Source: TPA_inf: Saccharomyces (taxonomy: Eukaryota). Taken from it: a stretch of 64,000 nucleotides of DNA. The notes under the pieces were generated by a model that ran no database searches, had not been told where the DNA came from, and saw only the letters and a program-made list of their open reading frames with translations. The DNA is taken from the NCBI GenBank assembly GCA_000146045.2, contig BK006940.2:128001-192000 (forward strand), given 5' to 3'. The position numbers and the translations under genes are program-made. Each line of letters begins with the position of its first letter. Position 1 is the first letter of the stretch. This document shows positions 39,885-52,000 of this stretch, piece after piece.

Positions 39885-40496
39885 TTGATGCTAAATTATA
39901 AATTGATTTTATTGTTTTCCTCTTTCCTACAATTAATCTCTTTTTCTGGCTTTATGATATGTTGTTTAACTTCACCAATAATTAGAAACTGGGGGCTGGC
40001 TCAAGCTGCTGGAGTTTCATATGGTACCTTTGGTTACTGTAAAACTTTGAATTCTTTTTCCTGCTCTCGAGTACGTTTAATATATAACACCTCGAAAGAA
40101 ATATTACCTGGCCCTTCTCTTGAACGTTGGTGGCTGAGTCCTAAGGCAAGACATACAATAGGAGGACTTTTGATTTCGATACCGGTTGCTACATGTTTGA
40201 CTTTCATTTCTTTTGCACTTCCCTTGGTTATTATTTTTCTTTTTCAGACTGGAGGAACTAATGTCTCACTTATTACTTCCAACGCTATATTACACATATT
40301 GACACTTTTATCAACTATTTTTGCATGCACCGTGATCCTGTTACTTTGCATGCACCGTGATCCTGTTACAATTTCATCCTTATACGACTTGGTGTGGCTG
40401 GCTAACTGTTCCCTGTTCCCTCTGCTCGTTATTGGCGTGCATTTTCTCAGTTTTAGGTTTGATACGTCTGCGCAGTCAGACAGAAAACATAGCTAA
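39885..40496 (+). CDS. DCV1: SUR7/PalI-family multi-TM membrane protein, truncated at 203 aa by a frameshift; N-terminal three TM helices
   Basis: Length and position match YFR012W. Hydrophobic helices MMLNYKLILLFSSFLQLISFSGFMICCL, IGGLLISIPVATCLTFISFALPLVIIFLF, LTLLSTIFACTVILLL. The reading frame changes inside a 25-bp tandem duplication at 40320-40369. Confidence 0.8.
   Translation: MMLNYKLILLFSSFLQLISFSGFMICCLTSPIIRNWGLAQAAGVSYGTFGYCKTLNSFSCSRVRLIYNTSKEILPGPSLERWWLSPKARHTIGGLLISIPVATCLTFISFALPLVIIFLFQTGGTNVSLITSNAILHILTLLSTIFACTVILLLCMHRDPVTISSLYDLVWLANCSLFPLLVIGVHFLSFRFDTSAQSDRKHS
40320..40369 (+). repeat. Perfect 25-bp tandem duplication (TTTGCATGCACCGTGATCCTGTTAC x2) inside the DCV1 coding region
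   Basis: Direct inspection: 40320-40344 and 40345-40369 are identical. 25 bp is not a multiple of 3, so it makes a +1 frameshift. Confidence 0.95.
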
Positions 40497-41310
40497 AGAA
40501 GCTAGTATAGAGAACGTAGACAGTATTCTCAAACTATATGGAACGAGTCAAACATCAAGTTCCCTTGGCGAAAATTATCCACAAACAACTAAGGGCACAG
40601 ACCAATCTGTGTATGACATCACAAGTCTTTTTAATGATCTACCAAGGACCTTAGATCCCAATCAAGATAAACTGGCGGTAACAAATCAAGATGAACCACC
40701 GCCTGAAATCAAATCTCCATTGAAGCAAGCAGGTTTGGTGAGTTTCTTCGCTCCAAAGTTGAATGGTAAACAAATATTTTCTAGAAGGCATGTTGAAAAT
40801 CAAAAATCCTTATCTTTGGATGAAATCAATATAACCGACTTACCTGCAAAGCAAGAAAATGTGGAAATGCCTACTGAAAAAAAAAAGGCAAATATTTTAT
40901 ATTATGAGGGAATCTCAAGCCATTCACAAGATAACTACGACCCTCCTTGGTTATTTGGCGTTGAGGCTACCCAATCAGCCGATTGCTTTAAAATATATTC
41001 AAAAAAAAATCATTGTCTCACAGAGCCCCGCCAATATCAACTACAACAACCAAATAATTACCAGGATCAAAGTGAGGTTCCTCATAACTCTTTCATTCCT
41101 TGGTATTCCCGAAGAAGACCAGTAGGATACAACCACAATTACAATCGCTACTACTCACAGACAACTCATGGTAACAGCGAACACTCCCGACAAACATTGC
41201 CACAGACCTACAACATACACAGCATGCTCCCCAGAAAGTACAAGCCCGCCTACAAAAAACAGGCACATCGTGTGAAGAGTAATCCACAACCAGCTTATAC
41301 TTTCCAATGA
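40370..41310 (+). pseudogene. Out-of-frame 3' continuation of DCV1 (fourth TM helix plus ~290-aa hydrophilic tail), separated from the 5' ORF only by the 25-bp duplication
   Basis: Removing one repeat copy in silico joins 39885-40344 to 40370-41310 in a single frame, reading ...IFACTVILLQFHPYTTWCGWLTVPCSLCSLLACIFSVLGLIRLRSQ... (466 aa). The track ORF 40357-41310 is this frame with a fortuitous start. Confidence 0.7.
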
Positions 41311-49041: not shown

Positions 49042-52000
49042 TTAAATAGTATCGTAAATGAGTTCCCGCAATTTGTAGTCTTCGTTAGCTTCTTCTATTT
49101 CTTCCCAGTTCCCGATTAAGTCATTGTGTCCTCTGACCACACCTGGAAGACTCCTACCCTTGCTGAAAGTCTTCCAAACTTTTCTCGCTTCATCATCTGT
49201 GCCAAGATCTCTGTAGGTGAACGGGATTCGGTTGGCCGTCAGGATTGTGCTTAAGCGATTTGTTCTGGGGATCATATGGAAACCGCCTCCGGCTAGTGAC
49301 GTGTATATATATACAGGTTCCTTTTCATTCAGCTTCCGGATCTCGCTAGTCGTTATTACGTCTTGTGGCTTGTCATTGTTTTTCTTGGATTGCTCAGTAG
49401 TTTGAGTTGTGGAGTCTTTCGCATCTAGTGATTGGAGTAGAGCGTTTAGTTCAGAATCATCAACAATTTTTAGTTGCTCTAAAAACTCATTCGTTTCGTC
49501 CAAAATATCTTTGAAGATGTCATCTGCACTTGCTTTCTTGGGATTTTCCCTTGTACTTTGATCTTCAAATCCATTTTCGTCATTGTTTGGGGCTTCTTTA
49601 CTGATTGACTCTGTTTCATTGAAGTCTAACTGGGATACCTCCTCTTCTTCTTGCTTAATTTCATTCTTTTCCTCCGTGATGTTTTCTTCCACTACAAGAT
49701 CAGGAAGAGAAGTTTCTTTCTCTGTTTCTTCTACTTCCAATTCCTTGTCTTCTCCTTTATTATCCTTTATATCTTGTTTTTCCAATTCTGGCAATTCGAC
49801 TGTCCTTTGAAATTCGTCTGAAATGTTGATATCGTCGATCTCTTGATCTCCGGTGACATCTTTGAGCGCCTCAGCAATCTTAGAATTTTCCATATTCTCG
49901 TCTTCTTTTGTCACGGCTTCCGCATCCTTTTTTGAAACTTCTGCCTCCGTACATGTTCCATCCTCTATTGGAGTCTCAGCAGGTTCCGAACATTTTGTTT
50001 CGATGTCTTCTTTTGAAGTTGCAGCAACTTCCACATCTTCATTTTCTTTATTCAGTTCAGCAGTGACTTCTGCCTCTTTTGGAGCGTCAAGATTTCCAAG
50101 CTCTGCCTTTACCTTGATAAATTCAGTTTTTTCGGAATTCTCCACTTCTGCATCTTCCTCGGTGTCAACTTCCACATCTTCATTTTCTTTATTCAGTTCA
50201 GCAGTGACTTCTGCCTCTTTTGGAGCGTCAAGATTTTCAAGCTCTGCCTTTACCTTGATAAATTCAGTTTTTTCGGAATTCTCCACTTCTGCATCTTCCT
50301 CGGTGTCCTTCTTGACAGATTCGCTGCTAGGTTCTATATATTTTTCGGCAGTTCCAACATCACTTGCTTTTGAATTTTCGCTCGCAGCCTCAGTAGCTTC
50401 ACCATGTTCATGATTTGTATCTTTGCCGGTGATTTTATCGCCTTCTTGTGTAATTTCAAAGCGTTTGGGTTTTTCTTCTTCTTTGAAACTAGTAGTAGAT
50501 CCTACATCTCCCATATCCTTTTGTGTAGTTTCAGCTTGTTCTGTTGAAATTTGAACGCGCTGGGATTTGGGATCTTCTTCTTCGGAATTCTCAATGGTTG
50601 TTGCAATTTCTGGCTTTACATCTTCATCGGGAACTCTAACATCTTCCTTTAGAACCTCAGGATCTCTTTCGTTGATTTGAAGATCTTCTGGTCTTCCGGA
50701 GGTACAACGCTTAACTACTTTTGGAGACTCAGGAGTCTTCGATTTCTCAACCTCTACACCTTCTGCACTTTCTCTTGCTGTTTCATCAACCTCTTTTTTT
50801 GCTTTCTCGTTGGAAAGCTCAGCAGTCCCCTCTTGCTTCTTTTTCATGTCTTCACTGATAGACTCAGCACCTCTCATTGCTATTTTATCATCTTTCATGG
50901 CCTTAACAGGTTCATCCAGCTTGACTTGTTCCCCTTCTTGATCTTCTTTGGCAACCTCGAGATCTTCAGGTATTATATTTTTTTCCACAGCCTCAACAAT
51001 CTCTACATCATCCCTAGGCGCGTCAGGTATATCGATTTCTCCGACAACTTCCGTAGGCTTGTTTTCCTGAGTAGGTGCTTCAGCTTCATCTTCAAGAACA
51101 AGGTTATCTTTAGAAATTTTTGCAGAGTTTGCGCTTCCCTCTATTTCAATAATGGAAGATTTTTCTCCCGCTTCTGACTGCTTTTCATCTCCCCCCATAA
51201 TTTCCTCTCCTTTTGATGTAGATTCTTCTTCGGTACCGGACACTTCATTATTTCTTACAGCTTCTTGCTCCCCGGTTACATTTTCTTTTTTAACTTTTGA
51301 AAAAGTCGAATTTTCTTCTTCTTCTTCTTCTTCTTCTTCTTCTTTTTCAACTTCTACAGATATATCGTTAGTACCGTGTTGTAGATTTTTTTCATTGTCA
51401 CTAATGCGCTTTGTTGGTCCCATCGTTTCGTCATCATAAGTCTCTCGCTCAGTTTCTGGAGGGATGATACTATCACTACCAGCTGCGTTAAAATTATGGC
51501 TCATGTTATTCTCATGATTAACAGATAATTCTTTCCTACATTTTTCGTCTTCTTTATCCTTCTGTTCAAAAACATGGTCTTCTTTCCCGATTTCTGTTTC
51601 TTTCTGATTTTTTGCAAGAACTGAAGGACTTATTCCGTCTCTATCACTTTCAGTCTGCTGCTTTTCCCCAGCTTTCAAATGTTTTGATTCGTTCTCTTTG
51701 AAATTAAACCCATTCTTAGTTAAACTTTCACTTTCAACATCCTTAGTAGACGCTTGCCCATTTTCATCACCTGCCTCCAAACCGTGCGGCTCTAGTTGGT
51801 GTTTAAAAGAAGCTGCATTTCCCTCATTAACATTTAAGATCTCATTCTCTTCTCGAGGTAAGGTATGTTCTGCCTTTTCCTCGTTGATATTGTTCTCGGA
51901 CTTTGAGGAAGTTTCGTCAACATTATCTTTGTTAGGCACATCTATGTCGAAGGTTTTGTCACTAGATTCATTTCTGGTTCTGATATCCATTTTTTCGACA

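Follow-up and report, generated by a model that had tools for sequence, protein, structure and literature searches.

Positions 39885–41310 on the forward strand of a 64,000-nucleotide stretch of Saccharomyces cerevisiae DNA (contig BK006940.2 of assembly GCA_000146045.2, positions 128,001 to 192,000; referred to below, in its full length, as the window) contain DCV1 (YFR012W), a gene of the SUR7/PalI family. The window very probably carries the S288C-type allele of DCV1, in which a recent and still segregating 25-bp tandem duplication truncates a gene of 465 codons and leaves it hypomorphic or altered in function. The ancestral gene would span 39888–41310 less one copy of the repeat and would encode a plasma-membrane protein with four transmembrane (TM) helices. 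A 25-bp segment at the boundary of TM3 and the second loop (codons 145–153) has been duplicated in tandem, presumably by replication slippage or by template switching without microhomology, and the downstream codons have passed into the +1 frame. Residues 1–152 are kept, and the highly conserved loop-2/TM4 block, together with a tail of about 280 residues, is exchanged for 50 unrelated residues. The truncated protein is presumably still made and partly functional; it may insert into the membrane with a hydrophobic frameshifted segment in place of TM4. Its mRNA probably has a long 3′ untranslated region (UTR) and may be a substrate for nonsense-mediated decay (NMD). Precise loss of one copy would be possible through slippage or single-strand annealing. 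In many other S. cerevisiae strains the tail is also lost, through slippage at a separate site, a poly-A run that has grown from A9 to A10 or A11.

Tandem duplication and reading frames

The 25-mer TTTGCATGCACCGTGATCCTGTTAC is present exactly twice, head to tail, at 40320–40344 and 40345–40369, with no mismatch between the copies. A perfect 25-bp repeat at 40320–40369 had been reported in a preliminary description made from the letters of the window, and exact matching, Tandem Repeats Finder (period 25, 2.0 copies, 100% matches) and period-25 identity all confirm it. No further copy was found in the 64-kb window with up to three mismatches allowed, and 100 dinucleotide shuffles gave an expectation of 0 for such a tandem pair. 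The period-25 identity covers exactly 50 bp, so the 25-bp unit has no flanking microhomology. Copy 1, on the forward strand like all the features of DCV1 described here, lies where TM3 ends and takes in codons F145–L152 and one further base, the first of Q153; copy 2 has the same sequence, and its 25 additional nucleotides place what follows in the +1 frame with respect to the presumed ancestral allele.

The S288C-type open reading frame (ORF) extends from an ATG at 39888 to 40496 and encodes 202 aa; a TTG at 39885 would give 203 aa. Residues 1–152 belong to the presumed ancestral protein and comprise TM1, an extracellular loop 1 with a C-x7-C motif, TM2 and TM3. Residues 153–202, LCMHRDPVTISSLYDLVWLANCSLFPLLVIGVHFLSFRFDTSAQSDRKHS, are derived from the frameshift and end at a premature TAA (40494–40496) located 814 nt upstream of the ancestral stop. 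The out-of-frame remainder of the ancestral frame, at 40370–41310, would encode extracellular loop 2, TM4 (QFHPYTTWCGWLTVPCSLCSLLACIFSVLGLI) and about 280 residues of cytoplasmic tail, the last of which before the stop are MLPRKYKPAYKKQAHRVKSNPQPAYTFQ. This +1 frame is open over 317 codons, from 40357 to 41310, and overlaps the upstream ORF by 140 nt. The ORF coordinates bear out the earlier statement that the 203-aa ORF and the 317-codon ORF in the +1 frame are parted by the 25-bp insertion. Deletion of one copy in silico gives an uninterrupted ORF of 465 aa from the ATG, or 466 aa from the TTG; it contains the peptide IFACTVILLQFHPYTTWCGWLTVPCSLCSLLACIFSVLGLIRLRSQTENIAKE quoted in the preliminary description, and the single ORF of about 466 aa proposed there is recovered.

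The one-copy frame and its relatives

The 202-aa product is an exact match to proteins named Dcv1p in S. cerevisiae S288C and YJM1419. In all related loci the neighbours are the same: the gene downstream has a WHIM1 domain, and the other two are a UCH-domain gene and a DUF1690 gene of opposite orientation. The SUR7/PalI profile of Pfam (PF06687, gathering score 29.6) matches the 202-aa form with 55.0 bits over profile positions 3–165 of 201, and the 465-aa fusion with 67.5 bits over positions 3–200 of 201. The one-copy form has four hydropathy peaks (about residues 6–28, 89–124, 131–156 and 160–188), and its structural model contains four long helices, predicted with low confidence (predicted local distance difference test score, pLDDT, 39.9). 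The motif FGYC-x7-C in loop 1 (C51...C59) is invariant across seven orthologs. It aligns with the consensus YGvFGyCk...sCs of a family hidden Markov model (HMM) that was built from 143 relatives, none of them a Saccharomyces DCV1. A PDB sequence search with Dcv1 gave no match at E ≤ 1; the label of claudin homolog for Dcv1 comes from the literature.

By these sequence comparisons, DCV1 can be assigned to the SUR7/PalI family and, within it, to the Dcv1/Tos7 subfamily of fungal claudin-like plasma-membrane proteins with four TM segments (YFR012W/YOL019W). The restored 465-aa protein resembles the subfamily in its coverage of nearly the whole PF06687 profile, its four hydrophobic segments, its C-x7-C motif and its long tail. 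The window allele, unlike the subfamily, breaks off after the third TM segment of the domain, continues with 50 unrelated residues and is devoid of the loop-2/TM4 region and the tail.

The relatives used for these comparisons were found in two ways. In a word-index protein search, with a single sequence and with a profile, every hit was a DCV1 ortholog from Saccharomyces and none was a paralog. An exhaustive profile search reached the Tos7 lineage and returned 266 relatives, mostly 430–950 aa long, which align at profile positions of about 8–190, that is, through TM4; the 143 sequences of the family HMM were drawn from these 266. The median length of the 143 is 576 aa, and just four of them have 260 aa or less. 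The comparison with the Tos7 lineage relied on a Naumovozyma Tos7p ortholog, which stood in for S. cerevisiae YOL019W itself.

Five lines of comparison agree that the one-copy frame is the ancestral one: the orthologs, the conservation at the junction, the family HMM, the constraint on the tail and a C-terminal motif. The orthologs of five other Saccharomyces species are single full-length proteins, collinear with the fusion and located in the same gene neighbourhood; their lengths are 473 aa in S. paradoxus, 460 aa in S. mikatae, 468 aa in S. kudriavzevii, 469 aa in S. eubayanus and 477 aa in S. uvarum. The S. paradoxus DNA has one copy of the 25-mer. The stretch QFHPYTTWCGWLT.PCS, which directly follows the junction in the one-copy frame, is invariant in seven orthologs, and no other block of their alignment is as well conserved.

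The family HMM scores the fusion at 157.4 bits (residues 9–234 aligned), the 202-aa product at 104.5 bits (residues 9–153 aligned) and residues 1–152 alone at 104.7 bits. The family signal thus rises by 53 bits with the one-copy frame and gains nothing from the two-copy frame. The Naumovozyma Tos7p, of the YOL019W lineage, is 33% identical through TM4 and has YKP[AS]YKK near its C-terminus in common with Dcv1. A motif Y[KQR]P[AS]Y[KR], in most cases Y[KQR]PAYK, lies 26–31 residues from the C-terminus in 21 of the 143 relatives, the Tos7p ortholog included; the restored 465-aa Dcv1 has YKPAYK at residues 443–448, and the two-copy product is without the motif.

For the tail, the ratio of non-synonymous to synonymous substitution rates (dN/dS) was 0.186 when S. 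cerevisiae was compared with S. paradoxus and 0.29 when S. paradoxus was compared with S. mikatae; the membrane domain has comparable values (0.22–0.28). The tail of DCV1 thus evolves under purifying selection (dN/dS about 0.19–0.29).

Similarity to SUR7-family proteins beyond residue ~153, which the preliminary description had taken as decisive for the fused frame, is seen in the extension of the Pfam match, in the HMM gain and in the alignment of Tos7p through TM4. The fourth TM helix and the long cytoplasmic tail expected there from the fusion are indicated by the hydropathy peaks, the Pfam coverage and the conservation of the tail.

DCV1 alleles within S. cerevisiae

All ten loci retrieved with the 202-aa protein (L012–L021, from NCBI, ENA metagenome and Logan assemblies) have two copies of the 25-mer. 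One copy is present in many S. cerevisiae assemblies (L001–L010 and L024–L038), and L011 likewise carries a one-copy allele. Three of the two-copy loci (L012, L014 and L019) carry private single-nucleotide polymorphisms (SNPs) elsewhere in DCV1 and are therefore two-copy carriers beyond S288C, not S288C contamination. The protein predicted by collapsing the repeat of the window exists in public data under two entries, P0215 with 465 aa and P0040 with 443 aa and a start at Met23; the version with Met in place of Lys at residue 325 (P0214, P0216) is commoner. As had been anticipated, other isolates and S. paradoxus have one copy and a long ORF, and the five other species encode proteins of 460–477 aa.

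The closest one-copy allele is that of L034, a phased NCBI assembly, which between 39818 and 41531 differs from the window at no variable site other than the 25 bp. The Logan contigs L030–L033 likewise have one copy and few SNPs with respect to the window. The L034-type allele still segregates and would be either the form from which the S288C-type allele directly arose or one restored from it by precise reversion. The tail of the window fusion has a dN/dS equal to that of an intact allele, and the downstream frame shows no measurable decay. The identity of the two copies, the intact-like dN/dS of the tail and the difference from L034 in copy number alone point to a recent duplication, in line with the recent duplication allele suggested earlier. 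The A at 40360 (Ile150), found in both copies, is common to S. paradoxus; most other S. cerevisiae alleles have a G (Val).

A second frameshift site, a poly-A run at 40877–40886, was identified by allele comparison as an independent hotspot. The ancestral state is A9 followed by T (EKKM), found in S. paradoxus and in the intact S. cerevisiae alleles and leaving the 465-aa frame intact. With A10 followed by T, the product has 331 aa; this allele is found in the wine strains EC1118, Vin13, AWRI1631 and P301 and on 80 + 34 contigs. With A11 followed by T, found in many long-read assemblies and one Logan assembly, the product has 404 aa from Met1 and is modelled as 382 aa from Met23. The window allele has A10 and no T, the result of a T-to-A change at 40886 that corresponds to M325K in the ancestral frame and is now out of frame. 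Both the A10+T and the A11+T alleles are common among S. cerevisiae assemblies.

There are at least three distinct truncating alleles of DCV1 in S. cerevisiae, at no fewer than two independent sites, and the gene is intact in the five other species examined. The tail of DCV1 has thus been lost repeatedly in S. cerevisiae. The earlier view of a gene intact elsewhere holds for the other species and for some one-copy strains, but many one-copy S. cerevisiae alleles are truncated at the poly-A run. These observations point to relaxed selection in S. cerevisiae on the tail of DCV1 or on the whole gene. DCV1 models of other lengths (P0025 with 145 aa, P0024 with 124, P0022 with 137, P0048 with 221, P0058 with 227 and P0050 with 278 aa) may represent further disrupted alleles beyond the three characterised.

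The two polymorphic sites occur in all four combinations of 25-bp copy number and T or A at 40886 (L014 and the L024–L034 loci); this must stem from recombination, from recurrent mutation or reversion, or from contig chimerism in heterozygous samples. Read as a four-gamete test, this pattern would argue for recurrent mutation; the argument was given less weight, since de Bruijn contigs assembled from heterozygous samples can be chimeric.

Two candidate readings of the loci were rejected. The identity of about 97.5% between the window and the one-copy alleles in BLAST searches might suggest an unusually diverged window haplotype; it is mostly accounted for by the 25-bp gap, and SNP divergence is below 1%. 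Locus L016 (GCA_033956085.1, CP135953.1) might be taken for a divergent natural two-copy allele; it contains two densely recoded blocks of the kind seen in engineered synthetic chromosomes and was left out of the population inference. These blocks, at window-equivalent positions 40088–40115 and 40466–40493, resemble the PCR tags of synthetic yeast. They are synonymous in the annotated 202-aa frame, and the poly-A run of this locus reads A9GG. Block 2 falls within the tail derived from the frameshift and so changes IRLRSQTENIA of the ancestral frame to IPALKAIESTL. Collapsing the repeat of L016 would not on its own restore wild-type Dcv1.

Automatic NCBI gene models of the ScRAP type in long-read S. 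cerevisiae assemblies (L005–L010 and L034–L037) start DCV1 at Met23 (MICCLTS...) and have 443, 382 or 309 aa. These lengths are 22 codons short, because an in-frame Met1 is present upstream (checked in L038).

Truncated product, alternatives and annotation

According to a preprint on Dcv1, based on BY4741-derived strains, a Dcv1 protein tagged internally at residue 120 is located at the plasma membrane, and dcv1Δ in BY4741 affects receptor polarity, lipid distribution, Congo-red sensitivity and cell fusion. The same preprint describes a four-pass protein, with no mention of a frameshift, a truncation or a paralog. The frameshifted tail contains a hydrophobic 19-mer, VWLANCSLFPLLVIGVHFL, with a Kyte–Doolittle value of 1.87 versus 2.32 for the native TM4. 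The 202-aa product is therefore not clearly a protein with three TM segments; its fourth hydrophobic segment is non-homologous to TM4 of the family. This 19-mer is the probable reason why a four-pass protein was predicted in the preprint, and in the 202-aa product it may take the place of TM4. Separate expression of TM4 and the tail is unlikely, since the only in-frame downstream ATGs are those at 40867 and 41224. The preprint also notes a similarity of residues 112–172 to the oxysterol-binding domain of Osh3; over residues 153–172 (40345–40403) it is probably fortuitous, because these residues are derived from the frameshift and are missing from the presumed ancestral protein.

The preliminary description had considered a loss-of-function or C-terminal truncation allele. 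The truncation, or hypomorph, stands; loss of function goes too far, since dcv1Δ in BY4741 has phenotypes. The most fitting term for the two-copy allele is C-terminal truncation, or hypomorph, rather than null.

Long 3′ UTRs trigger NMD in yeast, and slippage or single-strand annealing can act on a perfect tandem repeat of 25 bp; both properties bear on the alternatives to a hypomorphic truncation. The two-copy allele could be a true null or pseudogene, with a product that is non-functional or is cleared by NMD and quality control. Its loss of the most conserved block and of the entire constrained tail would fit such a reading, as would the stop lying 814 nt early, which with an unchanged transcript end would leave a long 3′ UTR. 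The few private downstream changes in two-copy alleles, all of them non-synonymous in the ancestral frame (V→A, S→P, Q→K and M→K), would fit it too. However, the phenotypes of dcv1Δ were obtained in BY4741, which carries the two-copy allele type, the internally tagged protein reaches the plasma membrane, and residues 1–152 are unaltered and followed by a new tail with a hydrophobic segment; a null is consequently unlikely.

The repeat could also be a reversible switch, with recurrent duplication and collapse toggling Dcv1 between its full-length and truncated forms, which would agree with the one-copy allele on the otherwise window-like haplotype of L034 and with the four combinations of copy number and the base at 40886. 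Those combinations are explained equally well by recombination in mosaic strains or by chimeric contigs, while the one-copy allele is most simply the progenitor. Only the one-copy and two-copy states were seen, and a two-unit repeat of 25 bp is expected to be far slower than classical contingency tracts; a switch of this kind is very unlikely. It is quite unlikely that a recurrent, reversible switch yields a short form with TM4 supplied by the alternative frame, and that this form, like the poly-A truncations that are common among wine strains, is kept because loss of the tail is advantageous in some S. cerevisiae niches.

Two further alternatives concern the reading of the repeat itself. Full-length Dcv1 could be made from the two-copy allele by programmed +1 frameshifting or other recoding in the overlap at 40357–40496, given that the downstream frame is open over 317 codons and shares 140 nt with the upstream ORF. 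The region 40345–40496 has no +1 heptamer of the Ty1, Ty3, EST3/ABP140 or OAZ1 type and no −1 slippery site, and the two-frame arrangement is not conserved, other species and many strains having a single continuous ORF. The downstream frame is presumably still open because the duplication is recent, and recoding is scarcely probable. An artefact of sequencing or assembly in the reference has a practically negligible probability. The same two-copy sequence was found in ten public assemblies that are independent of each other; they come from NCBI, ENA and Logan, include short-read, long-read and metagenomic ones, and in several cases have private SNPs. For this reason a sequencing error in the window was rejected. 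In addition, the index of the searched collection lists the exact 202-aa protein in 74 blocks, and 31-mers across the junction would differ by copy number, so that k-mer assemblies should discriminate the two states.

Several points weigh against the preferred reading of a recent, segregating and hypomorphic truncation. The BY4741 phenotypes come from one preprint; that the 202-aa protein is the sole S288C product, and that its new tail forms a TM helix, are both presumed. The structural models of the intact and the 202-aa forms have low confidence (pLDDT 39.9 and 57.1, respectively). The order of events is ambiguous, because all four copy-number/40886 combinations occur, and some of the Logan contigs are possibly haplotype chimeras from heterozygous samples. 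Contig counts are not allele frequencies and are skewed by the many laboratory derivatives of S288C in public data. The argument for relaxed selection draws on the number of truncating alleles and on four non-synonymous changes, too few for a statistical test.

The 3′ end of the disrupted gene has an annotation of its own. A 28-aa ORF of the YFR012W-A type at 41224–41310 on the forward strand, with the sequence MLPRKYKPAYKKQAHRVKSNPQPAYTFQ, consists of the final 28 codons of the ancestral DCV1 reading frame and holds the conserved YKPAYK and NPQPAY motifs of the ortholog C-termini. The annotated S288C-type genomes L015, L016 and L019 have a gene call of 28 aa at the corresponding position. Between the DCV1 ORF and YFR012W-A lie about 730 nt that are unannotated and were once coding. 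YFR012W-A is the orphaned C-terminal tip of DCV1, a relic and no independent gene, and for annotation DCV1 (202 aa) and YFR012W-A (28 aa) are two remnants of one 465-codon gene.

Strain-specific disabling alleles are known from S288C and other strains; examples are flo8 with a nonsense mutation, HAP1 with a Ty insertion, and AQY1 and AQY2 with frameshifts. As in these cases, the reference allele of DCV1 was hit by a small lesion that is a natural polymorphism, and the gene is undisrupted in other isolates and sister species. Unlike in them, the lesion is neither a point mutation nor a homopolymer slip nor a Ty insertion but a tandem duplication of 25 bp; the truncated Dcv1 also appears to be partly functional, and the orphaned 3′ end is annotated as YFR012W-A. 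The S. cerevisiae reference also has split or adjacent ORF pairs that comparative genomics has shown to be one gene. DCV1 and YFR012W-A share with such pairs the strand, order and frame of one ORF, and their orthologs are single ORFs; in contrast to ORFs split by sequencing errors, the split of DCV1 is real in S288C and its pieces are about 730 nt apart. The features of a strain-specific frameshift are all present: the insertion of 25 bp is not a multiple of three, the ORF is continuous in outgroups, the tail is constrained and one-copy alleles exist. No description of the duplication, of the poly-A alleles or of the nature of YFR012W-A was found in the literature, and population indel tables might list them; intact and variant DCV1 alleles are already deposited with automatic annotations, and the class of event is itself familiar.

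These results affect the use of existing data. Family comparisons that include Dcv1 residues 153–202 carry no meaning. The functional work on Dcv1 that was found describes a protein without the native TM4 and the conserved tail, because it was done in BY4741. Knockout-collection data come from the S288C background and likewise describe Dcv1 without these parts. From the whole-genome duplication (WGD), DCV1 has TOS7/YOL019W as its paralog. With constraint in five species and at least three truncating alleles in S. cerevisiae, DCV1 makes a case for relaxed selection on one WGD paralog. The natural allelic series would provide a handle on the function of the conserved tail, and the one-copy allele on the window haplotype offers a ready isogenic comparison.

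By far the top-scoring tandem repeat of the window is located elsewhere, at 50025–50366, where a 141-bp unit is present in two tandem copies with 99% matches; a second register of the same repeat gives 79%.

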